Assembly: GCA_964426185.1 (NCBI GenBank)
Contig: CAYRPF010000010.1
Coordinates: 1 to 15,813 of the forward strand
DNA from: an uncultured archaeon
Lineage (GTDB): Archaea; Asgardarchaeota; Lokiarchaeia; Sigyniarchaeales; Promethearchaeaceae
Reading direction: 5' to 3'
DNA: 15,813 nt
The position numbers were made by a program, and so were the translations under genes. This document shows positions 1-15,545 of this stretch, one piece after another. The notes beneath the pieces were generated by a model that saw nothing but the letters and a program-made list of their open reading frames with translations, made no database searches and was not told the DNA's origin. Within the stretch, counting starts at the first letter, position 1; each line of letters starts with the position of its first letter.

Positions 1-57
1 AAATATCTTGACGAACCGCTCGTGTACGACAACTTTCAAGAATACTTCCCTTCTTAA
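1..57 (+). CDS. 3' end of an unidentified gene entering from the left edge (partial)
   Basis: Frame 1 is open from base 1 and reads KYLDEPLVYDNFQEYFPS-stop (TAA 55-57). Its stop overlaps the DUF47 stop by 4 nt (TTAA 54-57), the same convergent arrangement as selB/roadblock. Too short to assign. Confidence 0.5.
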   Translation, partial: KYLDEPLVYDNFQEYFPS

Positions 58-752
58 ACAGCTGTTCGCTTGGCTGTTTTCAAGATTTCAATGTAATCGC
101 TTACATCTTCCACTTTATCTGAGATAGTCTCCAGCATATCAATGAAATTGCATATCTGAAGTGCAACAAACGCATTAAATTCCAATGGCGGTAATTTATT
201 CAACAACTCATAGAGATGCGAGTGAAGCACATCGATTTCATGTTCCATTAACTGAATTTTCTCACATATTCGGAATGTTTCTTTATTATCCATGGAAGGG
301 AGATTCTTAATTAAGTTATATAATATTTTAGTGGCTTCAATAGATAGATGAACAATTTTTTCACAATTTTTCAAGATAGGATCGCCTAATATATATATAT
401 GACCAGAATTCAATCCCATCAATCGTCGTGCTGCTCCATCTGTAGTGTTGGCAATTCTATCAATTCTTTTCACTAAATGTGACAAATCTTCTCGCATTTG
501 GGTGGTAAGTTCACTTTTAGAAATCTGTACTAAAATATTCCTTCTGATAATATCAGCTTCATTTTCGAGTCGATCTACTCGCTTGAAAATTTTGGTGGAA
601 AGGGCTACATCCTTTTCATTCACATAGATTGAGAAGCCACGTTCAAATTCCACCACAGTCTCCAAGACTTTCTGCATGTGGTTATTTGCCATTTCGTAAA
701 TATTCGCATTACTACGATTTTGAAGGAAAGTTTTCAATGACATAGTGCTCAC
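54..752 (-). CDS. DUF47 / TIGR00153 family PhoU-like putative phosphate transport regulator
   Basis: All-helical protein of about 230 aa with two repeated motifs typical of DUF47 (LENEADIIRR...REDL..L...IDRIAN and MEHEIDVL...LETISDKVEDVSD). The true start may be ATG at 743 rather than GTG at 752. Confidence 0.85.
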   Translation of the reverse strand: MSTMSLKTFLQNRSNANIYEMANNHMQKVLETVVEFERGFSIYVNEKDVALSTKIFKRVDRLENEADIIRRNILVQISKSELTTQMREDLSHLVKRIDRIANTTDGAARRLMGLNSGHIYILGDPILKNCEKIVHLSIEATKILYNLIKNLPSMDNKETFRICEKIQLMEHEIDVLHSHLYELLNKLPPLEFNAFVALQICNFIDMLETISDKVEDVSDYIEILKTAKRTAV

Positions 753-836: not shown

Positions 837-2078
837 TTAATTAACACGTAATGCTGCCTCCAATTCTGATTGAGGTATATGAGAGAATACAATTACGTAT
901 TGACTCGGATAATAGATGGTGATGGTTTCTCCTACTTGGAAATTATGAACTGCAACTTTTGTTGTTGGAATTTCAATTTTTATGAGTTTTTTTGGAGGTT
1001 CAGGGGTTAATTCTTCCGATCTTGTTTTCATAGAATGAGTTTTATTTCCATTTACAAGATTCTCCAATTGAAACGGGGCTAACATTTCGATTCTCAACCA
1101 AGCACCCATGTATTTTACTTTATTTACTTTTCCCACTATGCTATTGGTTTTATCTTGCCTACGTTTATGGCGCGCTTGGAAATATTGAGATCGAATTAAA
1201 AAGGTAACCTTATCACCAACAGCAAATCTTTTTTCCGTTTTAGCAAAGAGAAAATAACCCTCTTTGGTTAAAATGACTACCCGCTGTAAAGGTTTTTGTT
1301 TAAAACCGAGTTTTTCTACTTCTCTGACTTCGACCACTTTACCATTAAAATAATTCATTTCAGTGGAGAAGAAATTAGCAACAAACAAGTCAAGAGGTTC
1401 ATACAAAATTTCTTGAGGTGTACCAACTTGGCGGATCTTACCATTATCAAGTACTACAATGCGATCTCCCATCATGGCTTCTTGCATGTCATTGGTAACA
1501 TGCACTGTTGTCATCTGCAATTCCTTACTCTTCGCAATTTTCTTGATTTCCCTTCTCAAATTCATCCGTAAACCTGCGTCCAAAGCTTTGAATGGTTCAT
1601 CTAAAATTAGTAAACCTTTCTGTTCTAAAGCCATTATTGCACGTGCTAGCGCAATTCTTTGCTGCATTCCTCCAGAACATTCATGGGGTAATGCTGATCC
1701 ACGGCCTTCTAATCGGACCAATTCCAATACAGCTTCTCCAATTGAATATGTTTCCATTTGATTTGATTCCCGCATATGTCGAGCATAACAGACATTATCC
1801 AAGACTCTGAGATGAGGGAATAAGGCATATGATTCAAACATTACACCACAATGACGTTGATATGGAGGAAATTTAGTAACATCAACTCCATCGAAGAAAA
1901 TCTGTCCGATTGTAGGTCTATAAAGCCCAGAAAAAAGACCAACTAAACTGGTTTTTCCTGCACCAGTGGGGCCGACAATTGTGATATATTCCTGATCTTG
2001 AATGGTAAGATTAATATTATGTAAGATTTTAACGTTTCCTTGAGAAAATGACACATTTCGTAATTCAACTTTTACCAT
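837..2078 (-). CDS. ABC transporter ATP-binding subunit B (PotA/CysA/MalK-like, C-terminal TOBE-like region); degenerate Q-loop and H-switch
   Basis: Walker A GPTGAGKT, signature CSGGMQQR, Walker B LILDEP, D-loop ALD. Q-loop reads VMFE (E82 for Q) and H-switch reads HVTND (N196 for H). Beta-rich C-terminal extension. Confidence 0.93.
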   Translation of the reverse strand: MVKVELRNVSFSQGNVKILHNINLTIQDQEYITIVGPTGAGKTSLVGLFSGLYRPTIGQIFFDGVDVTKFPPYQRHCGVMFESYALFPHLRVLDNVCYARHMRESNQMETYSIGEAVLELVRLEGRGSALPHECSGGMQQRIALARAIMALEQKGLLILDEPFKALDAGLRMNLRREIKKIAKSKELQMTTVHVTNDMQEAMMGDRIVVLDNGKIRQVGTPQEILYEPLDLFVANFFSTEMNYFNGKVVEVREVEKLGFKQKPLQRVVILTKEGYFLFAKTEKRFAVGDKVTFLIRSQYFQARHKRRQDKTNSIVGKVNKVKYMGAWLRIEMLAPFQLENLVNGNKTHSMKTRSEELTPEPPKKLIKIEIPTTKVAVHNFQVGETITIYYPSQYVIVFSHIPQSELEAALRVN

Positions 2079-2125
2079 ATATTATCACTGATTCATTATA
2101 TTTTTCTATATTACGATTTCGTAAA

Positions 2126-3268
2126 TTATTGTAAATCCATTTCTTTTTGCAGATTTTTTGGATATTTGAAGATCCGGACATCTTCCATAAAGAAGCCAAT
2201 TTGGATTTCGTCTCCCACTGAAAATCGATATTTAAATGTTTCAGGTTTAGCAATTTGAATTTCATCACCATTATCAATTTCGATAATAAAGCGTCGCTCT
2301 TTTCCTGTGTGGAATTTCGAAACTACTTTTGCATCTGCTAGAAATATTCCTTCCCAATTTGCCTGAGAATTCTCAAAATCATATCCAATCGGAAACATAT
2401 ATACATCCTCTGGACGGAATGTAATTATCACATTTTCATCTAAACTAAACCGATTATAAGGTGCTGAAATGGTATACTTTGGACCTCCTAATCGAATTTT
2501 AACATGATAGACATTTGGATGATCTATATGAATGATATATCCTTCAAGAATATTGATGCCTCCTAAAAAATTACCTACAAACAAGGAATTTGGATTTTTG
2601 TATAAGGTTTCAGGCGTATCTTCTTGAAGAAGATGACCGTCCCGCATAATAATTATTCGATCTCCAATTGCCATCGCTTCTTCTTGATTGTGAGTTACTT
2701 GAATTGCAGTAAGGTTTGTATCTTTGATGATATTGCGCAGTTCCCAGCGAAATTCAGCACTGATCTTTGGATCAAGAGATCCTAGTGGTTCATCCATAAT
2801 TAAAATACGAGCACCACTACATATCGCTCGTGCAATTCCTAAACGTTGAAGATCTCCGTTACCCCATCCAGTTGGGTACTCGTCTGCACGATCTAATAAT
2901 CCTACAATCTCTAAAGCACGTTCTCCTTGTTTAATTATGTAATCTCGGCCATAACCTTGTACTTCTAAAGCGTAAGTACAATTTTCCCAAACTGTAATTG
3001 GAAATATATTAAAATTTTGAAAAACAAAAGCAATTCCACGCTCTTGAGGAGGAGATTCAGTAACATCTATCCCATCAATGAAGACTTTTCCTTGTGTAGG
3101 TTGAATGAGACCAGAAATCGTCCGTAATAGGGTTGTTTTTCCACATCCGCTTGGGCCAAGTAAAAAAACAAAGTCTGCATCTGGAATTGTCAAATTTACA
3201 TTGTTAACTGCAATTACTTCTCCATTATTAAAAATTTTCGTGACGTTTTCCAATTTAATTTCAGGCAT
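2126..3268 (-). CDS. ABC transporter ATP-binding subunit A (PotA/CysA/MalK-like, C-terminal TOBE-like region); degenerate signature motif
   Basis: Walker A GPSGCGKT, Q-loop FVFQ, Walker B ILIMDEP and H-switch VTHN are canonical. The signature reads WGNGDLQR instead of LSGGQxQR. Confidence 0.93.
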   Translation of the reverse strand: MPEIKLENVTKIFNNGEVIAVNNVNLTIPDADFVFLLGPSGCGKTTLLRTISGLIQPTQGKVFIDGIDVTESPPQERGIAFVFQNFNIFPITVWENCTYALEVQGYGRDYIIKQGERALEIVGLLDRADEYPTGWGNGDLQRLGIARAICSGARILIMDEPLGSLDPKISAEFRWELRNIIKDTNLTAIQVTHNQEEAMAIGDRIIIMRDGHLLQEDTPETLYKNPNSLFVGNFLGGINILEGYIIHIDHPNVYHVKIRLGGPKYTISAPYNRFSLDENVIITFRPEDVYMFPIGYDFENSQANWEGIFLADAKVVSKFHTGKERRFIIEIDNGDEIQIAKPETFKYRFSVGDEIQIGFFMEDVRIFKYPKNLQKEMDLQ

Positions 3269-4947
3269 TATAATTCCTCCTTAGTTTTAGGAGTAAAAAT
3301 CCGCAGTAATAACAACAAAATTGCACTAAGAAATATCACTACTATACTGGCGAAAGCAGCAGCAGAAAAGGCATTTTCTTCCACCCAATCCACAATAAGG
3401 ACTGGAATTGTCCGATCTGCTCCCATAACAATTAAAGTTGCACCTGTTTCCCCCATACTTCTTGTAAATGCAGCAATCATTCCTGCAATAACTCCATTTT
3501 TTATTGCAGGGAATGTTATTTTTCGAAATGTGGTCAAACTCACTGCACCTAATGTAGCACTTGCTTCTTCATGCCCAACATTAACAGAGCGGATTGTTGC
3601 AGCAATTGGTCGAACGACATAAGGAAATGTAAATGTCATGTGGACAAAAATTATCATTTCAATTCCAGGTTTAGCAAAATCTAATCCCGCTGGACCCCAA
3701 AAAAGGAAAACAGCAAAACCTAATGCTGCAGAAGGAATAGTTAGGGGAATATCAAGAATAGTATCCAGTACTGCGTTCATTTTACCCCATTTAGCACGTG
3801 TCAAGATGAATGCAAATGGAATTCCAAATAGAACATCAATAATCACCACAAAGAATCCGATTTCAAAAGAATTCACCAAACTAGTCCAAAGATGTGCCCA
3901 TTTGTTGTCGGCACCCATTAGTTCTATTTGAAGATCGGCCATGTGAATTTGAGACAATATAAAAAATGAAGGGATTAGTATGAAAATAACCATTAAAATT
4001 ATTGCCACGGACTTTAACGCAATTATAAATGGTTTTCGAGATAAGTTATATTCTATATCATAATGAACTTGCCAAAAATTTTTAGTTGCTACATTTCTAC
4101 GCGCTAGAAATTTGACAATTATCAAAAGTATTAAAGAAATTATAATTAAAATTAAAGAAAGAAAAGAAGCACTGGGTAATTGTAATTGCTTTCGTAAACT
4201 GACCACCACAAGGGGAGCGGTTTCAATTAATCCCGCACAAATTATAGTGGCGCCTGTTTCGCCTAAACTTCGCGTAAATGCAAGAATTGCACCTGCAATT
4301 AAACCTTCACGAATTAATGGAAAAGAAATTGTACGAAAAACCGTTAATTTGGGTGCAGATAATGTCATAGCGGCTTTTTCTAGTAATGGATTAACCTTAT
4401 CAATAGCAAGTTTAAGGTTACGAACAATATATGGGAATGTAAATGCTACATGGACAAAAATGACCAAGATTTTTCCAGGATATACTTGAAAAATCCTCCA
4501 AAATAATAAAACTGAAAAACCCAGTGCGCTTGTTGGAACTGCCATTGGAAGATCCACTAATGTATCCAGTATCTTTTTCCCAGGGAATGAATTTCTCGTA
4601 AGAATAACCGCAATTGGAAAACCTATCAAAATATCAATCACAACTGCATAAAAAGCAGTAGAAAAAGAATTCCATAAAGCAGTTTTCATTATTTCCCATT
4701 CTAAGTCTCCCAGTAATTCATCAAAGAAGAGGCGATTACGAATTTCACCAATATTATCTATAACACTTGAAATAATATTCATGATTGGTGCTGCAATAAT
4801 TAAAATAAAGAATCCAATAACCAAAATTTCCAGAATAATTCGATATTTTCGTTTACTAAATTCACGTTCTAAGGTTAACAATATGGATTTTCGCTTTTTA
4901 GGTTTAAATGTTAAATTTTCTAGGTGTTTTTGTAAGTTATAGGACAT
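3268..4947 (-). CDS. ABC transporter permease with two fused BPD_transp_1 repeats (CysT/CysW/ModB/WtpB-like; FbpB/ThiP architecture)
   Basis: About 12 hydrophobic segments and an internal duplication (LVDLPMAVPTSALG vs ILDIPLTIPSAALG; EKAAMTLSA vs EEASATLGA EAA loops; FTRSLGETGAT vs FTRSMGETGAT). Confidence 0.93.
   Translation of the reverse strand: MSYNLQKHLENLTFKPKKRKSILLTLEREFSKRKYRIILEILVIGFFILIIAAPIMNIISSVIDNIGEIRNRLFFDELLGDLEWEIMKTALWNSFSTAFYAVVIDILIGFPIAVILTRNSFPGKKILDTLVDLPMAVPTSALGFSVLLFWRIFQVYPGKILVIFVHVAFTFPYIVRNLKLAIDKVNPLLEKAAMTLSAPKLTVFRTISFPLIREGLIAGAILAFTRSLGETGATIICAGLIETAPLVVVSLRKQLQLPSASFLSLILIIISLILLIIVKFLARRNVATKNFWQVHYDIEYNLSRKPFIIALKSVAIILMVIFILIPSFFILSQIHMADLQIELMGADNKWAHLWTSLVNSFEIGFFVVIIDVLFGIPFAFILTRAKWGKMNAVLDTILDIPLTIPSAALGFAVFLFWGPAGLDFAKPGIEMIIFVHMTFTFPYVVRPIAATIRSVNVGHEEASATLGAVSLTTFRKITFPAIKNGVIAGMIAAFTRSMGETGATLIVMGADRTIPVLIVDWVEENAFSAAAFASIVVIFLSAILLLLLRIFTPKTKEEL
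3274..3282 (-). promoter_or_regulatory. Shine-Dalgarno site and TAATG stop/start coupling between permease and ATPase A
   Basis: Minus strand reads AAGGAGGAA-TTA-TAATG. The permease TAA (3268-3270) overlaps the ATPase ATG (3266-3268). Confidence 0.7.
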
Positions 4948-4993: not shown

Positions 4994-6178
4994 TCATATT
5001 CTATTTCTGGTTTTTAACCATAAATCAGGAATGCGTGCAATAACATTTCCATCTGTTGGAGGAAAAATCTCTCGAATTTGAGAAGGATTAGGTGTAACCC
5101 CATTATTCCAATTAAATGTTGAGTTGTAAAGAATAGCAATTTCGGGATCTTGCAACCATGAAGAATTAATTGGACGAAAACCTACTTCAATGGCGCGTTC
5201 AATCATGGTTTTTTGTTGAAGGAATTTCAAATATTCTTGAGCGACAATTTTTTGGTCTTCACTTACCCAATCTGCATCTAAAATACAGAAGGGATGATCT
5301 GAAAAAAGTGCACCTTCTACTGGATAAATAGCCATTAGTTTTTGGTTCCAATTCTCTTGTGCTTTTTCTGTATTATCCTTAATAAGATTTTCATATAAAA
5401 TTGTTACTTGCAAAGCATCAGGTCCTTGTGAGATCATATATCTTCCTAAAAATCCTGTAGATTTTCCATACAAAATGGCTGCACTCTCAAGTTCACTCAT
5501 CCATTGAGCAAGATTTTGGTCATAAATATTATCTAAAGTTAAATTTTCTGTTTCTAATCCTAAATAGGCGCTAACCATCATTATAGTAGCCATAAAACCG
5601 CTGTTTGAACTGGTTGGATCGGTATGAGCTAGATTCACCAAACCTGGATTATTTACAATTAAATCATGCAGATCATTTAGTCCCGTAATATTATACTGAG
5701 TATAGAAATTTTCCCAAGTAGCAATTACAACTGGAGAAAATATAATTCGAGTGTAGTTCGGTGCTATTGGAATTGATTTTTTGGTATAATCCATCCATTT
5801 TGCGTTTAATAGGGGGATCCAGATATTCGAAGCAGGAGACCATATTACTGGTTTAATTTCCCCATTTAATAATGCAATTAATGAATCACCAGAGCCATAG
5901 GGTTGAAAATCAAGAGCAATATCTTTTAGGGTGGGATCATCCTTTTGTTTTAATTCCCAATACTGCAAAAATAATTCTGATGATTGGGAGATCCAAGACG
6001 ATTTTTCGCTAGAATAACTTAAAGATAAAACTACTACATTGTTTTTCTGTTGATTGAAAATGAAATTCCCTAATCCCGTTCCTAGAAAAAACCCTATAAT
6101 TAACCATATTAAAATTGTAGATGGAAGTATTTTTCGCTGAAGATAACTTTTCGTTTTGTTAGCAGCCCTTTTTCCCAT
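4994..6178 (-). CDS. Membrane-anchored extracellular solute-binding protein (SBP_bac_11 / PBP2-like)
   Basis: Basic N-terminus plus one TM helix (ILIWLIIGFFLGTGLG) with no lipobox. Motifs SSEK, GSG, WSPAS, SPVVIA, HTDPTSSNSG, STG, YEN and YP.EG...DHP. First gene of the ABC operon. Confidence 0.85.
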   Translation of the reverse strand: MGKRAANKTKSYLQRKILPSTILIWLIIGFFLGTGLGNFIFNQQKNNVVVLSLSYSSEKSSWISQSSELFLQYWELKQKDDPTLKDIALDFQPYGSGDSLIALLNGEIKPVIWSPASNIWIPLLNAKWMDYTKKSIPIAPNYTRIIFSPVVIATWENFYTQYNITGLNDLHDLIVNNPGLVNLAHTDPTSSNSGFMATIMMVSAYLGLETENLTLDNIYDQNLAQWMSELESAAILYGKSTGFLGRYMISQGPDALQVTILYENLIKDNTEKAQENWNQKLMAIYPVEGALFSDHPFCILDADWVSEDQKIVAQEYLKFLQQKTMIERAIEVGFRPINSSWLQDPEIAILYNSTFNWNNGVTPNPSQIREIFPPTDGNVIARIPDLWLKTRNRI

Positions 6179-6406: not shown

Positions 6407-8194
6407 TTATTTTACTATTAAATCGATGAGCTTAAATGCTTCGACATCGACTAAACCGATATCTGTAATTTTTAATGCTGGGATAACTGCTAATGCCATG
6501 AAACTTAAAGTCATAAATATATTTTGCTCTGAACATCCCATTTTTCGTGCCACTTCCTTAATCGCATTATATTTTGAAACGATTTCTTCTATAGTTTCTG
6601 TGGACATCAAACCACCAATTTGGAGTGGTAGGTATGTATATTTGTTTTTATAGAGAATTGCCATTCCTCCACCTTTTTCCCGGAGAAAATTTCCAAGATC
6701 TGCCATTAATTCATCTGAAGTACCCACAATAATCAAATTATGATTATCATGAGCTACTGTTGATGCGATTGCTCCATCCTTAATACCTATCCCTTTAATA
6801 AATCCAATTCCATGATTTCCCGTTCCATGGTGCCGTTCAAAAACGGCAATTTTAAGTATATCACGTGATAAATCTGGCTCTATAAACATTTTTTCTTCCT
6901 TCTTCTTGACTGGAAGCTCTTCTATCAAGTGTTTTGTAATTAAACTTATAGGAGTGACACCAATTGTATGCACTTTAATTGAATTTTCAAAACCAGTGTA
7001 AGGAATGCGAAAATCCTTTGCCGAAAGACTTTTTGAAAGATTCATGCTCTTTAATAAAGAACCATAATTGTAGGAAGTTATCTTTGGAACAATTTTTCCC
7101 CGTTCAAATACTAATTTGCCTCGATGAAAAACGGAATAAACGGAAACTTCACTTAAATTATCTAAAATGATTAAGTTGGCGCTAAAAGAAGGTTTTATTC
7201 GACCTATTGGAGGGCGGTTAGTTAAAGAAAGAAATTTTTGAAGGTAATTGCCTGCGTTAAAAGTAGCCAATCTAATTGCCTTGATAGTCGCCGTATTTAG
7301 GTCGTCTCCAGCATGTTTTTGGAATAACTGAGCAGTTCTTCTAATAATACGATCTATATGACCATCCTTTAACAAATCACTGGGTGCCAAATCATCAGAG
7401 CAAAGGCTACAATGATCTAGATTGATATTCTTTTTAATCAATTCAGGAAGGATATTATTCAAATCTTGCGTTGCGCTTCCATAACGAAGTGCAATAAACA
7501 TTCCCTTATTGAGTTTTTCAATAACTTCGTCGGCAGATGTCGATTCATGATCGTTCATAATTCGAACTTTTTCGTCAAGATGCCCATTGGAGATATATTT
7601 TTCTAATTCTTCTCCCCTTACCCCAGGACAATGTCCATCAATTAATTTTTCCGCTTGATATGCAATTTCTACTTTGTCACGAGCATCTCCAATATTATAA
7701 ATAATTCCGGGGAAATTCATCATCTCGCCTAAACCATAAACATAATCATCTAAAATTAGTTCTTTAATATCTTCTGGGGTAATTGTTGCTCCAGAATGTT
7801 CCATGTGAGTAGCGGGCACACAAGAAGGGATTCCGATATACATATCTAATGGAACTAATTTGGCTTGCTCAATCCAAACTTTTATTGCTTTTTTACCTGC
7901 TACATTTGTAATTTCATGTGGATCTACGGCCATAGTTGTAGTTCCGTGTTGAACTGCTATAGAACAAAATTGAAGTGGTGGCATCATGCTACTTTCGATA
8001 TGCAGATGACTTTCAATAAATCCCGGCGATACAAATTTCCCTTTTAAATCAATGATTTCACAAGAACTAGGGATTTCTGAATTAGGTGGGTTAATCGATT
8101 TAATTCTGTCATCTTCAATTAGAATTGAACCTTCAAAAATTTTCATCTGTTCAACATTGATAATTTGCCCATTTGTAAGAAGTATGTCACTCAA
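6407..8194 (-). CDS. ade: Adenine deaminase (amidohydrolase superfamily, AdeC type)
   Basis: Motifs SHLHIESSM, DPHEITNV, PSCVPAT, LGEMMNFPG, IDGHCP, DHE, SDD, AVFERH, ASTVAHDNHN, GGLMS, LKITDIGLVDV; 595 aa; TTG start. Confidence 0.95.
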   Translation of the reverse strand: MSDILLTNGQIINVEQMKIFEGSILIEDDRIKSINPPNSEIPSSCEIIDLKGKFVSPGFIESHLHIESSMMPPLQFCSIAVQHGTTTMAVDPHEITNVAGKKAIKVWIEQAKLVPLDMYIGIPSCVPATHMEHSGATITPEDIKELILDDYVYGLGEMMNFPGIIYNIGDARDKVEIAYQAEKLIDGHCPGVRGEELEKYISNGHLDEKVRIMNDHESTSADEVIEKLNKGMFIALRYGSATQDLNNILPELIKKNINLDHCSLCSDDLAPSDLLKDGHIDRIIRRTAQLFQKHAGDDLNTATIKAIRLATFNAGNYLQKFLSLTNRPPIGRIKPSFSANLIILDNLSEVSVYSVFHRGKLVFERGKIVPKITSYNYGSLLKSMNLSKSLSAKDFRIPYTGFENSIKVHTIGVTPISLITKHLIEELPVKKKEEKMFIEPDLSRDILKIAVFERHHGTGNHGIGFIKGIGIKDGAIASTVAHDNHNLIIVGTSDELMADLGNFLREKGGGMAILYKNKYTYLPLQIGGLMSTETIEEIVSKYNAIKEVARKMGCSEQNIFMTLSFMALAVIPALKITDIGLVDVEAFKLIDLIVK

Positions 8195-8200
8195 TAAAAA

Positions 8201-8914
8201 TCACTTCCTCCTGTAATAATCCTCATTTACGGCTATAACGAAAGGAAGTTGCCGGAAATCATCGCCAGAATCAATTCCATAACCTGCAACCCAAACATCG
8301 GGGATGGTAAATCCAATATAGTCAATATTAAGATTCGTTCGAATCTCTTTTACTTCTTGAGTTGGTTGCTCTAATCGTTTATAGAGTAAAGTACAGATTT
8401 TTACTGATGCAGCTTTTTTTTCTTCAATTAAGAATTTTTGCAATTCCGATAAAGTAAAGCCTTGATCAATAATATCTTCTACAATAATCACATGTTCTCC
8501 TTCAATATCGCCACAATCAAGTTGAATATCCACTTCTCGAATTGTTTCCCCTACTTTTTTGATTTCCTTACGGTAAGTTGAAAGTTTCATTGTAAAATAT
8601 TGGATATCAGGTCCATTTTGACGGAATATTTCTCTTCCAAGGTCTGCAGCAAACATGAATGCTCCTGTTAAAACCATTAAAAGATTGAACTTAGGGTTTT
8701 CAATATTATCTTTAATTATTTCGGCTGCTAATTCTTGAATTCTATGTTTTATAACATCTGGAGGGATAAGTAATCTTGAAAATCGTTCATCCTTACTTAA
8801 TTGACTTGATAATATTTGTTCATACGTTTCTGGTCTGCGATGATCGATGACACCTTGTAAAGGTACTTCAATTATATTTCCGTAATCAGTTAAATTTAGA
8901 AATTTTGGATTCAT
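8201..8914 (-). CDS. hpt: Hypoxanthine(-guanine) phosphoribosyltransferase
   Basis: PRPP-binding loop VIIVEDIIDQGFTL, VLTGAFMFAADL, DYIGFTIPDVWVAGYGID...FRQLP; lies between mtnP and ade. Confidence 0.9.
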   Translation of the reverse strand: MNPKFLNLTDYGNIIEVPLQGVIDHRRPETYEQILSSQLSKDERFSRLLIPPDVIKHRIQELAAEIIKDNIENPKFNLLMVLTGAFMFAADLGREIFRQNGPDIQYFTMKLSTYRKEIKKVGETIREVDIQLDCGDIEGEHVIIVEDIIDQGFTLSELQKFLIEEKKAASVKICTLLYKRLEQPTQEVKEIRTNLNIDYIGFTIPDVWVAGYGIDSGDDFRQLPFVIAVNEDYYRRK

Positions 8915-8946
8915 TTTAATCTCACATAATTTTTGGATTTAAATAT

Positions 8947-9810
8947 TTATAGAACAGCCCCATCACGAGCATGTGGACAATGACAATGTTGATCAGAAGG
9001 TATTCTGGGAAGTGCTAATTCTATCAATTTACGAAGATTTTCTGCATTTTTCTCCATGGTTTCCAAGATTTCATCTACACTTACTGCCAAAGGTGCTATT
9101 GGACCTCGGCATTTTGGACATTTTTCTCCATACATAACAATACCACAGTTTGGACATTCACAAGCCCAGACATCAAGGTCTGTAACCGTAGCAATGGAAG
9201 AATAACACATATTCAATTCTGCAGCAAGTACGACCTCAGGATAGACAGTCATTCCTACTACGTCTCCACCCCATTGAGCAAACATTCTTGATTCTGCGCG
9301 GGTCGAAAAGCGAGGACCATTAATACATACATAAGTTCCGCCATTTTGCATATTAAGACCTAATTCTTTTCCTGCTTGATAAAAAATTTCATTCATTTCA
9401 GGACAGAATGGATCGGCTTGGCTGATATGACACACTTCGCCACCTTGATAAAAGGTTTCTTCTCGACCTTTAGTTCGATCAATATATTGATCAATAACTA
9501 TAAAGACGCTTTTATCGGTTTTTGGAGTCAAACCCCCAACTGCACAAGGAGAAAATAATCTTTTAACACCCAACTCCTTCATTGCCCAAATATTGGCGCG
9601 ATAGTTTAATTTATGTGGTGGAATTTGATGATTTGGTCCATGACGGGATAAAAAAGCCACCTTCTTTCCATTAAACATTCCAATTGTAATTAAATCTGAC
9701 GGAGCACCGTATGGGGTATATAATTTATATCTTTTTGCATTTTCTAACGATATATCTGCCCCAGTTCCTCCGATAATTCCTATTTCAATATCATGTTCTG
9801 TATAACTCAT
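8947..9810 (-). CDS. mtnP: S-methyl-5'-thioadenosine phosphorylase with Zn-ribbon insertion
   Basis: IGIIGGTG, TPYGAPSD, SRHG..H.IPPH..NYRANIWAMK, GPRFSTRAES, DVVGMT..PE..LA.E, TDLD catalytic motif and C-terminal CHC. Confidence 0.93.
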   Translation of the reverse strand: MSYTEHDIEIGIIGGTGADISLENAKRYKLYTPYGAPSDLITIGMFNGKKVAFLSRHGPNHQIPPHKLNYRANIWAMKELGVKRLFSPCAVGGLTPKTDKSVFIVIDQYIDRTKGREETFYQGGEVCHISQADPFCPEMNEIFYQAGKELGLNMQNGGTYVCINGPRFSTRAESRMFAQWGGDVVGMTVYPEVVLAAELNMCYSSIATVTDLDVWACECPNCGIVMYGEKCPKCRGPIAPLAVSVDEILETMEKNAENLRKLIELALPRIPSDQHCHCPHARDGAVL

Positions 9811-9956: not shown

Positions 9957-11249
9957 ATGGTAAAATTACGCTTTCTTGGAGCATGTAGGGAAGTAGGTCG
10001 AAGTGGTATTTTGATAGAATCCGAAGAAACGGGAGATAAAATACTACTAGATTATGGAATTAAATCAGATCATACAACTTTATTTCCTGAACATGTAAGT
10101 GGTCGAGATTTAAGTGGGATTGTTCTCACTCACTCACATATAGATCACTGTGGAGGGATTCCTCTTTTTTACATATCAGGATCAGTTCCATTATTTTGCA
10201 CTGAATTAACCTTTCGAGTTTCAGAAATCTTATTATATGATATGTTACGAATTAGCCAACAATATCTTCCTTTTGGTAAACGTGAAATCCGGAAAATGAA
10301 TCAATATGCCAAATTCCTTCCTTACAAAACTAGGAAAAAAGTTGGGAAGAATTCTTGGATAACTCTATATAATGCAGGACACATTCCTGGTTCTGCAATA
10401 GTTTTAGTAGAAATAGATAATAAAAAAATTTTGTATACGGGTGATTTCAATCTCACTCAAACAAGATTAGTAGAATCAGCAGATATGTCAAGTTTCCCTC
10501 CAATTGACGCTTTAATTATAGAATCTACATACGGAACAACCTCTCACCCTCCTCGTGAAGAAACAGAAAATGAATTCGTGAAAACAGTTGAAAGTATTGT
10601 GGAAGACGGAGGAATTATTCTAATTCCAGCATTTGGAGTGGCGCGAAGTCAAGAAATTCTTATGATATTAAACAAAGATCGTGCACCTTCTTATCCAATA
10701 ACTATTGATGGGATGGCAAGATCAATTATCGAACAATATTCCCGATTTCCAACAATGTTTCGTAATTTTGAGGAAATGATTAGTGCATTCGATAATGCCC
10801 GGATTGTGAATCAAAATCGGAGAAAAGTTGAACGTGCAAATGCCGCAAATAATTCTGGAGTCATTGTTGCACCTTCTGGAATGTTAAAAGGCGGTACTGC
10901 GCGATATTATGCCTCAAATATTTACAATGATCCAAAAAATGCAATAATTCTCGTTTCATACCAAGTAGAAAATACTCCTGGCCGAATTCTTTTAGATACC
11001 AAAAAGTATCAATTAGATGAGAACGATATACCTCATGAAATCGCTGCTCAAACATATCATTTTGATTTCAGTTCTCATTCTGGGAAAGATGAATTATTAG
11101 AATTTATCAAAGGCATAAAATTTACGCAAGAAAGAGAAGTATTTTGTGTGCATGGAGATGAAGAAACAATGATTGAATTTGCCAAAGATATTGAAAAACA
11201 AGGGTATAATGTATATATTCCTTATTTAGATCAAAAATATGAATTGTAA
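9957..11249 (+). CDS. Metallo-beta-lactamase/beta-CASP ribonuclease (aCPSF2-like, no N-terminal KH domains)
   Basis: FLGA..EVGRS, LLDYG, THSHIDHCG (HxHxDH), AGHIPGS, YTGDF, ESTYG, PSGML.GG, FSSH, VHG. At 430 aa it lacks the KH extension of aCPSF1/FttA. Confidence 0.9.
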   Translation: MVKLRFLGACREVGRSGILIESEETGDKILLDYGIKSDHTTLFPEHVSGRDLSGIVLTHSHIDHCGGIPLFYISGSVPLFCTELTFRVSEILLYDMLRISQQYLPFGKREIRKMNQYAKFLPYKTRKKVGKNSWITLYNAGHIPGSAIVLVEIDNKKILYTGDFNLTQTRLVESADMSSFPPIDALIIESTYGTTSHPPREETENEFVKTVESIVEDGGIILIPAFGVARSQEILMILNKDRAPSYPITIDGMARSIIEQYSRFPTMFRNFEEMISAFDNARIVNQNRRKVERANAANNSGVIVAPSGMLKGGTARYYASNIYNDPKNAIILVSYQVENTPGRILLDTKKYQLDENDIPHEIAAQTYHFDFSSHSGKDELLEFIKGIKFTQEREVFCVHGDEETMIEFAKDIEKQGYNVYIPYLDQKYEL

Positions 11250-11260
11250 ACTCAAAGAAA

Positions 11261-11283
11261 TTGGTTTTTTCGTTTTTAATTTT
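11261..11283 (+). terminator. Putative oligo-T terminator after the beta-CASP gene
   Basis: TTGGTTTTTTCGTTTTTAATTTT lies 12 nt after the stop codon, in a convergent intergenic gap. Confidence 0.45.
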
Positions 11284-11286
11284 ATA

Positions 11287-11964
11287 TTAAATTTTGTTAA
11301 ATGCATCATAAATCTCAGAAAGCGAAGGTCGATGGTATATTTCTGAACATTTTTGCTGATTTAGTGCAATATTAAAGAAATTTACTAATATATGGGCAGA
11401 AGCACCCCAGATCTTATACTCTTTTTTTGTTTTTTTATCATGATATATAATACTTAAAAGGTGAAATTCTTTACTGTTAGATTTAAAAAGAATTTCATCA
11501 AATTTTGGGAGGTCGAGGAAAAATTGAAAAGGGATTTGAACGATTTCATCCACTTCTTCGCTGTTTACAAAAAAATCACGTGATGTTAATTGATTTTTTA
11601 TATATCCTATAAAAGGACGAATGATATATCCAGTTAGAGTTGGTAAATCATCTAATGTGCCCCAAATTTCAATATTTGCAGGATCTAATCCAATTTCTTC
11701 TGATGTTTCTCTGATTGCTGTCTGTAATAAATCTTCATCCTGAGAAGAATCAAATTTTCCTCCGGGAAAGCTCATTTCTCCATTATGGTGTTTTAATGTC
11801 TTTGATCTTTGAGTCATTAATAGAAAGAGGGTTTCTTTTTTTTTGCAAATCAAAATCATTACTGCTGCAGGGGTGAGAGAAGGAATCGAGAGACGTTGTG
11901 GATGATAATGTTGGATTTTATTTTTCATTTGTTGAATTAAATCATTCCAAATATTACTCATCAA
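11287..11964 (-). CDS. Nudix hydrolase, CoA pyrophosphatase family (NudL/PCD1/NUDT7-like)
   Basis: AAVMILI, LLMTQRSKTLKHHNGEMSFPGGK (CoA-Nudix motif), Nudix box TAIRETSEEIGL, EEVDEI, IWGASA. Start is probably ATG 11961. Confidence 0.9.
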   Translation of the reverse strand: MMSNIWNDLIQQMKNKIQHYHPQRLSIPSLTPAAVMILICKKKETLFLLMTQRSKTLKHHNGEMSFPGGKFDSSQDEDLLQTAIRETSEEIGLDPANIEIWGTLDDLPTLTGYIIRPFIGYIKNQLTSRDFFVNSEEVDEIVQIPFQFFLDLPKFDEILFKSNSKEFHLLSIIYHDKKTKKEYKIWGASAHILVNFFNIALNQQKCSEIYHRPSLSEIYDAFNKI

Positions 11965-11992: not shown

Positions 11993-12331
11993 ATGTGGAA
12001 AACTATGCCTAAAGTTAATCCTAAACATCGAAAACTCCGAGCGGAAACGATAAATATGGGAGTAAAAAAGAGCACTGGAACATGCGGAATCGAGAAATGC
12101 AGTCAACCAGTAAAACAACACGTAGCAAAAGCTAACATTGATAAATACGCAACACAATTGAAGTGGAGTATTAAAGAAAGCAGTAAGAAACCCCGAAAAA
12201 TTGGATTATGTAAAGAACATTATAAGCAATTTCATAAGTTACAAAAGAAGGATGAAAAATACACCCGTCCCAGAATGTTTGATTCGGAAAAGAAGCCTTC
12301 CCGTTATAAATCCAATGTATTCTTGGAATAA
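11993..12331 (+). CDS. Small basic putative Zn-finger protein (C-x4-C...C-x2-H)
   Basis: Lys-rich ORF with CGIEKC and LCKEHYKQF. The likely true start is ATG 12056 (MGVKKSTGTC). A T-tract follows at 12334-12355. Confidence 0.75.
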   Translation: MWKTMPKVNPKHRKLRAETINMGVKKSTGTCGIEKCSQPVKQHVAKANIDKYATQLKWSIKESSKKPRKIGLCKEHYKQFHKLQKKDEKYTRPRMFDSEKKPSRYKSNVFLE

Positions 12332-12566: not shown

Positions 12567-13475
12567 TTAAATCCATTTCGATTTTCGAGGTTGGGAGTAA
12601 TTTTGTAAGATTTTTATTCTTTCTTCTTTTTTTTCTAAGTCCTTTTCTATTCCTGCTTTCTGTTCGTTATATTCAGATTCATCAATTTCTCGCGCTTTAA
12701 AACGCGCTTGTATCATTCCTAATTTATTTTTTAGGCGTTTAGATTCTGCTTTTTCTTTTGAAATCCAAATTATGACATTATCTCGCAACTGTTGAAGTTC
12801 ATCTTCATATTTTCGATATTCTGAAGAATATTCTAATTTCAACTGCTCATAAATCTCTTTCTTCACTTTTCTTCTCTTATATTGGCGTTTTAACTCAATC
12901 AACTGTTCTCGTTGGATTTCCATCAAATCTTCCAATTCATCCATGCGAAATTGACCTTTGGGGCCTAACTTACGTCTAATTTCTTCTTCTTTTGCCATAA
13001 GTTCTTCTTTTACTGATTTGAATGCTTCTAATTTAGCACTTATCTTATTTGCATATTCAATATCATGCTCGAAACGATCAGAGTCTACTTCATCCTTTAA
13101 TTTATCAAGCTTACTCATTAATTTCTTCTTTTTCTTTTCAATGACAGCTAAATCCATTTTTGCTTCTAATTGCTCTACTATATTTTTAGGCAATTCAACT
13201 TGAGCTTGAAAAATTGCTTTGTTTTTCCCTTTTTTTTCTGTTTGTTTTTCTATATTTTTGGAATCTTTATCTGGTTTTATCTGAAATTCAGGAAGTTCTT
13301 CAGATGTAGATTTCGCAGTTGTGACACTTAATTCTTTATTAATCTCATTTCGTTCTTCAGCAGTATACTTGGATTCTGTTTTTTGTAGTTTGGATCCGCA
13401 AAAAATGCAGAATTTATCCGAATCTCTTACCATTCGTCCGCAGAATGGGCAAGGAATTTCTTTAAAGTTTGCCAT
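12567..13475 (-). CDS. N-terminal zinc-ribbon plus CdvA-like coiled-coil protein
   Basis: CPFCG...KFCIFCG Zn-ribbon, a low-complexity linker and long K/E heptad helices. Two helix-turn units (YKRRKVKKEIYEQLK; ARFKAREIDESEYNEQK) resemble the CdvA-like/SHOCT 'GEISEEEY' pattern. Confidence 0.7.
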   Translation of the reverse strand: MANFKEIPCPFCGRMVRDSDKFCIFCGSKLQKTESKYTAEERNEINKELSVTTAKSTSEELPEFQIKPDKDSKNIEKQTEKKGKNKAIFQAQVELPKNIVEQLEAKMDLAVIEKKKKKLMSKLDKLKDEVDSDRFEHDIEYANKISAKLEAFKSVKEELMAKEEEIRRKLGPKGQFRMDELEDLMEIQREQLIELKRQYKRRKVKKEIYEQLKLEYSSEYRKYEDELQQLRDNVIIWISKEKAESKRLKNKLGMIQARFKAREIDESEYNEQKAGIEKDLEKKEERIKILQNYSQPRKSKWI

Positions 13476-13590: not shown

Positions 13591-15066
13591 ATGGAAAAAA
13601 AAACTCGCCATTTAATTCCAGTTCACATAGGATTAATGGGGCATATAGATGCAGGTAAAACAGCTATCGCTCGTTGCTTTACTGAAATTATTTCCACAGC
13701 AGGGCTCGATAAACATTCACAATCTCAAGAACGGGGAATAACTATTGATTTAGGCTTCACTTTTTTCCAGCTAGATCAATATATGATTACCCTAGTTGAT
13801 GCTCCTGGGCATGCAGACTTAATTCGAAGTGTTGTAAGTGCTGCAAGAATCATAGATATGGCCATTTTGGTAATAGATGCAACGAAAGGGCCTCAAGTGC
13901 AAACGGGGGAACATTTATTAATTCTGGATATGCTTGAAATTCCGTATGTAATAGTATTATTAAATAAAATCGATTTAATATCTGAAATTCAAATCTCTAT
14001 ACTGGAAGAGAAAATTCATGAAATATTCAAGCAAACTCGTTATCACGGAAAAATTTCAATATATCCCGTTTCAGCAAGGAAATGTGAGGGATTTAAGCTT
14101 GTAAAACAAAATATTCTGAATTATTTGAATAAAAATCCTGTTTCACGCAATATTTCAGGTAATTTTAAGTTCTTATTTGATCACCATTTCTTGATTAAAG
14201 GAAAGGGAACTATTCTAACAGGAACAGTTTTGTCAGGAACTCGGAATATAGGAGAATCAATAACTATTTTGCCTTTAAACCAGCAGTTTAAAATAAAATC
14301 TATCCAAAAATGGAAAACATCTACTGAATCTATACAAGCCGGAGATCGTTGTGGTATTGCTGTCAAAGGATTGAATCCAGATTCAATCCATCGTGGTGAT
14401 TTTGCAGTAGATACGCTTAAACCTTTTGTTAAATGCCAAATTCTTCATGTAAATCTCAAAATTAGTAAGTTTTTTGACCATTCTTGCAAGTTTGGACAAA
14501 ATCTTACAGTAATTCATAATATGAAACCCTATAATTCAAAGATCTATCCCGTCTTGCAAAACCAAATGGATGATAAACTGATTTTGGAAATGTTACCAGA
14601 TTCAAAAGAAAAAAAGGAAGTTCTTGCTTTTATTTGGTTAGAAGAAGAGGGATTTTTCCAAAAAGGTGATGATTTGTTAATAATGCGCATGGATCTTCCT
14701 CCAAAACAGTTAAGAATCGTTGGTATTGCTAATATACTTTCCTTTGAAAAACCACCTATAACAATTTATCGAAAAAAAGTCAAAATTGGAAAGGTCATTC
14801 GTCCCAATTACTCAATTAATTCTGTCATTGTAAAAAACCTAGCACAATCTATTAAAGGTGCTCAATTTATAATGAAATATAATCCAGATCCGCCTTTTAC
14901 ACAAATTATCGCTCCATTTGGTAGCAAAGGATTAGTCGAAGTAAAATATAATAAGCAAACTTTACAAAAAATTACACAAAAAAGTGAAATCACAGAAGGG
15001 TTTCCTATATCCGTGAAGATCCTAAAGCAATTTACCTTAGATTTTTCAAAATCTTATCATCTTTAG
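13591..15066 (+). CDS. selB: Selenocysteine-specific elongation factor, archaeal/eukaryal type (aSelB/eEFSec)
   Basis: GHIDAGKT, STAGLDKHSQSQERGITIDLGF, DAPGHADL, QTGEH, NKID, DHHF.IKGKGTILTGT, GDRCG, RMDLPPKQLRI and a short domain IV with APFGSKG. No bacterial winged-helix extension. Confidence 0.93.
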   Translation: MEKKTRHLIPVHIGLMGHIDAGKTAIARCFTEIISTAGLDKHSQSQERGITIDLGFTFFQLDQYMITLVDAPGHADLIRSVVSAARIIDMAILVIDATKGPQVQTGEHLLILDMLEIPYVIVLLNKIDLISEIQISILEEKIHEIFKQTRYHGKISIYPVSARKCEGFKLVKQNILNYLNKNPVSRNISGNFKFLFDHHFLIKGKGTILTGTVLSGTRNIGESITILPLNQQFKIKSIQKWKTSTESIQAGDRCGIAVKGLNPDSIHRGDFAVDTLKPFVKCQILHVNLKISKFFDHSCKFGQNLTVIHNMKPYNSKIYPVLQNQMDDKLILEMLPDSKEKKEVLAFIWLEEEGFFQKGDDLLIMRMDLPPKQLRIVGIANILSFEKPPITIYRKKVKIGKVIRPNYSINSVIVKNLAQSIKGAQFIMKYNPDPPFTQIIAPFGSKGLVEVKYNKQTLQKITQKSEITEGFPISVKILKQFTLDFSKSYHL

Positions 15067-15545
15067 TAATTTCCTTCTCCAATAGCGATATTCGATAGCA
15101 AATCAGTTAATTTAGTGAAATACTTGCTTAAACGATAAAAATAATAACCTAATTTTGAAATTCGTTTACTATGGGATAGAAGCATAAATTGACTTTCATC
15201 TGAGGTAGTAATTATTGTATATCCATCTTCTCCTGTAATTACAATTTGATTCAATTTTCCGTAATTTAATCCCTCAGAAACTTTACTTGCTAAAGAAACT
15301 AGAGTTGCTGGTGATGCAGAATGCTGATCTACATCCGTACGAGCATGAGTCGAACTCGCAATACGCAGTCCAGTTTTTGTAACTAGTGCAGTTCCTTCTA
15401 AATCCGTAGAACTTTCAAGAGCTTCAAGCATTCGATGAAGATCATGTTGTAAATCGTCATCAAGATCTATTTCTGACATCTCTATTTTACCTAGGTTATT
15501 ATATACATTAATTATTTTGCTTAAAGAAATTTGTTTCGAATCCAA
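15063..15545 (-). CDS. Roadblock/LC7 (MglB/LAMTOR2-like) domain protein
   Basis: LEGTALVTKTGLRIASS...SASPATLVSLASKVSEGLNYGKLNQIVITGEDGYTII...KLGY matches the Robl_LC7 pattern. The likely start is ATG 15479 (MSEIDL), not TTG 15545. Its stop overlaps the selB stop by 4 nt. Confidence 0.85.
   Translation of the reverse strand: MDSKQISLSKIINVYNNLGKIEMSEIDLDDDLQHDLHRMLEALESSTDLEGTALVTKTGLRIASSTHARTDVDQHSASPATLVSLASKVSEGLNYGKLNQIVITGEDGYTIITTSDESQFMLLSHSKRISKLGYYFYRLSKYFTKLTDLLSNIAIGEGNY

Follow-up and report, generated by a model that had tools for sequence, protein, structure and literature searches.

The 15,813-nt stretch of DNA analysed here (the window), one contig of a 3.26 Mb, 92% complete genome of an Asgard archaeon, encodes an ATP-binding cassette (ABC) importer with two different ATPases, A and B, whose deviations from consensus fall on complementary motifs. 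An ATP site of an ABC transporter consists of the Walker A and B motifs and the A-, Q- and H-loops (here, the cis motifs) of one subunit and the signature of the other (PMC7756269). Since each site takes parts from both subunits, one site of an AB dimer would be perfect and the other altered in several motifs, and AA and BB dimers would each have two altered sites. The asymmetric A/B motor is well supported as real and conserved, and as a new variant of a known design rather than a new kind. Judged from sequence comparison, we consider it likely, with a probability of about 0.75, that A and B together power an importer in which one site (site 1) hydrolyses ATP and the other (site 2) is degenerate, the pair having arisen by duplication. 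The two ATPases and their decisive motifs are located as follows.

2126..3268, minus strand: ATPase A, with intact cis motifs, a degenerate signature and a C-terminal TOBE-type domain
2852..2866, minus strand: degenerate signature WGNGD of ATPase A, residues 135-139, part of site 2
837..2078, minus strand: ATPase B, with a near-canonical signature, altered Q-loop and H-loop, and retained Walker A Lys and Walker B Asp-Glu
1665..1679, minus strand: signature CSGGM (CSGGMQQR) of ATPase B, which together with the cis motifs of A would make up consensus site 1
1833..1835, minus strand: Glu82 in place of the Q-loop Gln of ATPase B, part of site 2
1491..1493, minus strand: Asn196 (VTND) in place of the H-loop His of ATPase B, part of site 2
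2040..2042, minus strand: Gln13 at the A-loop aromatic position of ATPase B, lineage-specific

ATPase A carries the Walker A motif GPSGCGKTT (nt 3131-3157), F13, Q84 (nt 3017-3019), MDEP with the catalytic E160, and VTHN with H193. In ATPase B, the Walker A motif GPTGAGKTS and LDEP with E161 are intact, and the replacement of the Walker B catalytic Glu, the usual exporter hallmark, is therefore absent from the copy in the window. All of the residues and positions named in a sequence-only reading of the window are present in the sequence. Its claim that B has lost the A-loop aromatic residue is the weakest point: the loss is restricted to a few lineages and is not a family trait, as 67/81 B orthologues keep Tyr or Phe. 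The assignment is also alignment-dependent, F11 of B lying opposite F13 of A in the pairwise alignment and Q13 being placed in the Tyr/Phe column by multi-sequence alignments.

The motifs were compared across 132 operons, in which A and B were typed by the wording of Walker A and by gene order, not by the motifs scored. Twenty-five operons have one ATPase, with all motifs canonical and the signature LSGGM in 25/25, indicating that the Met in the B signature is the family norm. In 26 operons there are two ATPases with B first; their cis motifs are canonical save for one His-to-Asn change (locus L218), the A-type signature is intact or slightly changed (LSGGA, LSSGA, LSRGA), and 17 B-types have a Pro just ahead of the Q-loop Gln, again at the same site. 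The other 81 operons, found in several Asgard families and in Bathyarchaeia, have A first as in the window. Throughout these, A retains Lys, Gln, Asp, Glu, His and the A-loop aromatic residue (81/81) and lacks SGG in its signature (81/81), which occurs as 19 different pentapeptides. B retains SGG in 81/81, and this SGG is invariant in all two-gene operons (107/107). At the Q-loop Gln position of B, Glu is found in 76, Ala in 4 and Gln in 1 of the A-first operons; at the H-loop position, Asn in 62, Gln in 5 and His in 14. The catalytic Glu of B is kept in 67/81 and replaced by Asp in 10 and Gln in 4, and the Walker A Lys is replaced by Pro in 3/81. The routes of decay in B differ by lineage: the Walker B Glu became Asp in two clades and Gln in two, the His became Asn or Gln, and one clade lost the Walker A Lys. 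Of the 14 B orthologues that keep His, 11 lack the catalytic Glu. A single operon (L212) has an altered A signature beside an intact B. The deviations of the two non-identical ATPases map to a single composite site, the arrangement of ABC motors with one consensus and one degenerate site.

Co-variation of signature loss in A with Q- and H-loop loss in B among orthologues, which the sequence-only reading had named as a check, was found as a fixed split in the 81 A-first operons. Its fixation across several Asgard families and Bathyarchaeia makes the split more than chance. The second ATPase of one family (f18; L147, L150 and L151) has lost Walker A altogether (e.g. GPSNGGPSF), carries Gln for the catalytic Glu and keeps LSGGM; it is the most extreme case and probably cannot bind ATP.

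On a permease tree built with FastTree, with the trait columns left out and without a root, the minimum number of changes in two-ATPase operons is 40 at site 2 (24 in the A signature and 16 in the B cis motifs) and 0 at site 1. The ratio of nonsynonymous to synonymous substitution rates (dN/dS), calculated pairwise for the ATPase core (first 240 codons), ranges from 0.03 to 0.11 in unsaturated pairs of either gene, apart from a single value of 0.29 for B at low divergence (dS 0.13). ATPase B is under constraint as strict as that on ATPase A. Purifying selection on both genes argues that the pattern is not decay, and together with the conservation of the pattern it bears out the proposal of co-evolved asymmetry rather than random decay; close orthologues with canonical motifs, or a relaxed dN/dS, which had been named in advance as grounds for abandoning it, were looked for and not found. 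The probability that either gene, or both, is a pseudogene in drift or an artefact of assembly is practically negligible. B is split or absent in a few metagenome bins, as would be expected of decay, by a frameshift in L033/L060 and by a contig break in L048. However, the frames are intact in the closed genomes of MK-D1, Ca. L. ossiferum and Ca. H. repetitus, a 100% identical copy occurs in a separate metagenome contig (L055), dN/dS is low and site 1 shows zero changes, and a pseudogene was ruled out by motif conservation on the permease tree together with dN/dS. The frameshift (L033:5542-6841, on a contig shared with L060) follows the ATPase core in one metagenome bin and may be an assembly error. 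L048 was rejected as a natural A-only operon, its frame entering unrelated sequence in a 63% complete assembly.

Because the A and the B sequences each group in a single clade with high support (100/99 and 100/98), the founding step, loss of the A signature with Gln-to-Glu in B, probably occurred once. The independent evidence therefore lies in the later, repeated losses, all of them on the same site. The relatives with one canonical ATPase (25 operons) or two near-canonical ATPases (26 operons) form a natural series and look as if they preserve intermediate steps, although the single-gene operons may be ancestral or secondary, the trees being unrooted. This three-state series and the 40-to-0 contrast between the sites are what the present analysis adds.

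In the mechanism that we propose, the fused permease would bind a single copy of each ATPase. Site 1, formed by the cis motifs of A and the SGG signature of B, has consensus motifs and would hydrolyse ATP and drive the cycle. B may be taken to complete the site of A because its SGG is invariant while its own catalytic loops decay. Site 2, formed by the cis motifs of B and the ruined signature of A, would be degenerate; in the lineage of the window it probably still binds nucleotide, because B keeps the Walker A Lys and the Walker B Asp, and would hydrolyse it slowly or not at all, serving as a structural or regulatory contact. Most likely, a homodimeric ATPase gene was duplicated inside the family, after which selection would have been relaxed on one composite site and strict on the other. 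The motifs, the operon, the pattern of conservation and the purifying selection are read from the sequences; the heterodimer, the catalytic inactivity of site 2, the order of events and the substrate are our inferences from them. A single active site can suffice in an importer, as illustrated by HisP, cited in PMC3971661. The A/B heterodimer with one damaged site put forward in the sequence-only reading is supported by the convergence of the defects, their conservation and the purifying selection on both genes, but its single active site goes beyond the motifs, B keeping Lys and Asp-Glu.

A model of the A+B complex scored 0.74 (three runs), compared with 0.13 for the best control, and passes the mark reached by 58/80 solved and 2/110 mismatched pairs. 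At least 84% of contacts are common to the runs, the partner has a predicted local distance difference test score (pLDDT) of at least 81, and the predicted interface involves Walker A, the D-loop, the H-loop and crossed C-terminal domains. The pass may reflect likeness only, because MalK, PotA and ModC dimers have been solved.

Several points weigh against the asymmetric A/B motor as described. If the founding step occurred once, the 81 operons are not independent, and the later changes in the A signature may have drifted in once selection on the site was relaxed. The permease tree carries long-branch warnings, and the complex model covered AB only, so that its score gives AB no rank over AA or BB. 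Site 2 may also be slow rather than dead, by analogy, because Glu161 is present in B and an H-loop Asn is tolerated in MRP1, where Asn or Gln at this position of NBS2 kept wild-type-like transport (PMC7756269). It is accordingly conceivable, but quite unlikely, that both sites of an A/B heterodimer hydrolyse ATP unequally, site 2 being slowed or re-tuned (e.g. by Glu82 at the Mg2+) and not off. The retention of the Walker A Lys, Walker B Asp and catalytic Glu by B in the window and in 67/81 orthologues would fit this, as would the tolerance of Q-loop and H-loop amide substitutions in MRP1 and the conservation of Glu82 and Asn196 themselves, which suggests a function. The A signature, by contrast, lacks the gamma-phosphate-contacting Ser in the lineage of the window and varies freely among its 19 pentapeptides, and several lineages have later lost the B catalytic Glu or Walker A Lys with no sign of gene decay.

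It is far less probable that A acts as a homodimer with a non-canonical signature, or that the ATPases act separately, with B a regulatory or accessory subunit outside the motor dimer. A holds every cis catalytic residue, and ABC-fold ATPases with divergent signatures exist. Yet the invariance of the B SGG in 107 two-gene operons, while the B cis motifs decay, is sensible only if B completes the site of A, and a degenerate A signature occurs only where a B gene is present, single-gene operons having LSGGM in 25/25.

The asymmetric ATPases belong to a minus-strand unit of five genes, in the order binding protein, fused permease, ATPase A, ATPase B and DUF47, which holds a type I ABC importer set of solute-binding protein, MetI-like permease with EAA loops, and ABC ATPase. 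The other three members are as follows.

4994..6178, minus strand: membrane-anchored solute-binding protein, with an N-terminal helix and the class II solute-binding protein fold
3268..4947, minus strand: fused pseudo-heterodimeric permease, PF00528 twice, CysT/WtpB/ModB-like
54..752, minus strand: DUF47 / PhoU_div protein, last gene in the unit (PF01865, E 1.8e-23)

The permease stop codon overlaps the start of ATPase A, and ATPases A and B are separate genes with a 47-nt spacer. The five-gene order is retained across the order, and a scan for promoters and terminators gave no excess over shuffles. No further ATPase of the same family was found in the 92% complete genome of the window, its remaining PotA/MalK-like ATPases sitting in other operons. 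The permease is present in 25/41 close relatives, in 104/301 genomes of the phylum and in 101/201 genomes of the class of a Bathyarchaeia genome. Hosts include the cultured MK-D1, Ca. L. ossiferum, and Sigyn-, Hel-, Borr-, Sif-, Heimdall- and Bathyarchaeia. A tblastn search of ATPase B against plasmids returned generic relatives only, at about 35% identity, and an identity look-up of the single-ATPase protein gave no match.

The permease scores 221 bits with TIGR00969 (cut-off 240), 207 with NF040839 (cut-off 340) and 192 with TIGR02141 (cut-off 183), and its nearest solved relatives are ModB/WtpB (2onk and 3d31). The binding protein of the window has no Pfam or NCBIfam match, and a sequence search against the PDB gave none; its orthologues carry PF13531 (SBP_bac_11), and the ModA profile, from the same clan PF13531, matches one of them at E 0.052. 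Its AlphaFold model (pLDDT 89.6) has tied best folds at a Z of about 25, namely sulfate-binding protein (1sbp/5um2), thiamine-binding protein (2qry) and STM0429 (4r6y). In L073:3774-6482, a 902-aa frame joins binding protein and permease, and frames of 926 and 951 aa (G393, G508) may be similar. A 727-aa permease frame in L104:3-2186 leads directly to B without a recognisable A core, likely through internal deletion or misassembly. L201-L205 (family f12) have the same binding-protein family, a permease split into two genes, and one canonical ATPase 6-7 kb off on the opposite strand. A gene of the binding-protein family lies within 5 kb in only 4/26 B-first and 10/25 single-ATPase operons (L156-L162, L168-L171 and L223-L245 are among those without); where no such gene is nearby, the binding protein is elsewhere or unrelated. 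Recurring neighbours of family f3 at L083:2687-3382 and L107:9765-10397 (21 and 6 loci) match nothing in Pfam or NCBIfam.

The cargo is probably an oxyanion, and the gene neighbourhood gives about even odds that it is phosphate or a phosphorylated solute. DUF47, which PMC9239043 describes as a regulator of phosphate transport in Pit systems, occurs in 106/131 related loci; in the window it is a probable regulator or accessory factor, through which uptake would be regulated. AbrB-PhoU regulators occur beside 24 loci from several lineages, PiT lies near 19 loci and an alkaline-phosphatase-superfamily gene near 17, and pst genes adjoin the operon in G003, G004 and G009. Counting against a phosphate cargo are the PiT and phosphatase neighbours, which come mostly from one family, and the binding protein, which is not PstS-like in the top fold matches of its model. 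A search for PstA at E 1e-25 gave no match in the genome of the window, nor in the single-contig genomes G001 and G011; mutual exclusion with PstSCAB was not seen among the relatives, many having both and several neither. Sulfate/thiosulfate or molybdate/tungstate in place of a phosphate compound appears rather unlikely. Such a cargo would agree with the permease scoring best with CysT, WtpB and ModB models and narrowly passing the ModB cut-off, with a sulfate-binding protein as the top Foldseek match of the binding protein, and with a weak motif-by-motif alignment of the latter to E. coli CysP (E 0.03, probability 1.6%). On the other side, the annotated recurring neighbours include phosphate genes and no sulfur-assimilation or molybdenum/tungsten genes, and the genome has a separate TupABC-like tungstate importer. 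It is a speculative and unlikely extension that these are an undescribed archaeal family of phosphate-type importers, unrelated to PstSCAB, whose living members (with one canonical ATPase, with two near-canonical ATPases, or with full asymmetry reached by several routes) record how a motor with one active site evolved, and that the degenerate site and DUF47 together have become a regulatory nucleotide or phosphate sensor.

Elsewhere in the window, a purine salvage cluster (adenine deaminase, an HGPRT-like protein and MTA phosphorylase; 6407-9810, minus strand) lies directly upstream of the operon on the same strand. Adenine deaminase also adjoins the operon in L028, L031, L032 and L052, all of the same family, so that this neighbourhood is probably local synteny and not a clue to cargo. 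Beyond it are a Beta-CASP metallo-beta-lactamase ribonuclease (plus strand) convergent with a Nudix hydrolase (minus strand) at 9957-11964, a 112-aa Cys/His-containing basic open reading frame without Pfam match (11993-12331), a zinc-ribbon and long charged, probably coiled-coil protein (12567-13475, minus strand), the selenocysteine-specific elongation factor SelB (13591-15066, plus strand; TIGR00475 above cut-off, with an aSelB_III domain), and a Roadblock/LC7 protein (15063-15545, minus strand) whose end overlaps that of selB by 4 nt.

Why many ABC transporters forfeit one ATP site, and how much ATP an importer uses per cycle, are open questions, and work on them has been confined almost entirely to exporters. 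Homodimeric, symmetric-heterodimeric and asymmetric motors on one permease scaffold make the cost and benefit of a degenerate site directly comparable, and cultured hosts exist in MK-D1 and Ca. L. ossiferum. The importer may also be a missing phosphate uptake route in Asgard archaea without PstSCAB. The principle of one consensus site is already known, with precedents in importers, which limits the surprise.

In heterodimeric type IV exporters (TM287/288, TmrAB, TAP1/2, MRP1/ABCC and CFTR; PMC3971661, PMC7756269), all deviations likewise fall on one composite site, and some B orthologues here carry the classic Walker B Glu-to-Asp change (L047, L049, L112 and family f9). In contrast to these exporters, the present system is a type I importer: it has a binding protein and a MetI-like permease, and its ATPases are free subunits that carry TOBE-type tails. 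The earliest cis change held in common is the one from Gln to Glu in the Q-loop, rather than a lost catalytic Glu. That such a layout is typical of exporters, as stated in the sequence-only reading, does not make it unexpected in importers overall, given RbsA/NupO and GlpS/GlpT; the narrower statement of that reading, that PotA/CysA/ModC-type importers normally use a homodimer, stands. In the literature, no paper was found that describes this importer family or reports a degenerate site for any PotA/CysA/ModC-type importer, most subscription journals being outside the search.

Among importers, a degenerate site has been reported from sequence for RbsA and NupO (PMC11466899). The N-terminal domain of E. 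coli RbsA keeps its cis motifs and reads LSIGD; in the C-terminal domain LSGGN is retained, but the Walker A Lys is missing, Glu replaces Gln and Ser replaces His. CUT2 systems such as RbsA/NupO differ in having two domains in one chain (separate genes here), another permease fold, sugar cargo and a more fully inactivated site. By sequence, the closest permease and ATPase families are those of ModBC/WtpBC (2ONK, 3D31), CysTWA and PotABC, whose ATPases share the TOBE-type C-terminal domain; these use one canonical ATPase as a homodimer (motifs checked in E. coli PotA and CysA), whereas the permease here is fused and the binding protein is not ModA, WtpA or CysP by profile. The ATPases fall below the WtpC (211 and 197 bits vs 440), ModC (130 for B vs 285) and CysA (214 and 204 vs 343) cut-offs. 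Of the WtpABC/ModABC permease cut-offs, WtpB is missed (207 vs 340) and only ModB is reached (192 vs 183); CysPTWA is further set apart by the fused permease scoring below its cut-offs, by the two ATPases and by a non-significant CysP match. No model places the importer in PstSCAB either (PstA 73 vs 193, PstC 72 vs 196, PstB 136 vs 343). The pentose importer XacGHIJK of the archaeon Haloferax volcanii (PMC11519228) is also of type I and also has two distinct ATPase genes, but XacJ and XacK both have canonical motifs. Two ATPase genes alone thus do not imply asymmetry, as B-first operons with two LSGGM signatures also show.

A close parallel is the glycerol importer GlpSTPQUV of Rhizobium and other Alphaproteobacteria, named in PMC7912956, which in Rhizobium (pRL9) has two separate MalK/PotA-type ATPase genes with the same complementary split. 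GlpT has intact cis motifs and the signature LTADQ, and GlpS has LSGGQ, His to Thr/Ser and no A-loop aromatic residue, a split conserved in Rhizobium, Azospirillum, Paracoccus and Maritalea; no paper describing this asymmetry was found in the literature search. GlpSTPQUV differs in its CUT1 sugar permeases, the permease here being CysT/WtpB-like, and in keeping Gln in GlpS. In the free tree, GlpS and GlpT are placed outside the clade of Asgard and Bathyarchaeia sequences (100/98), although approximately unbiased tests on the ATPases alone do not reject joining them (p 0.34 and 0.48). Because canonical members lie inside the archaeal family and the permeases are unrelated, separate origins of the archaeal and the GlpS/GlpT asymmetry are favoured.

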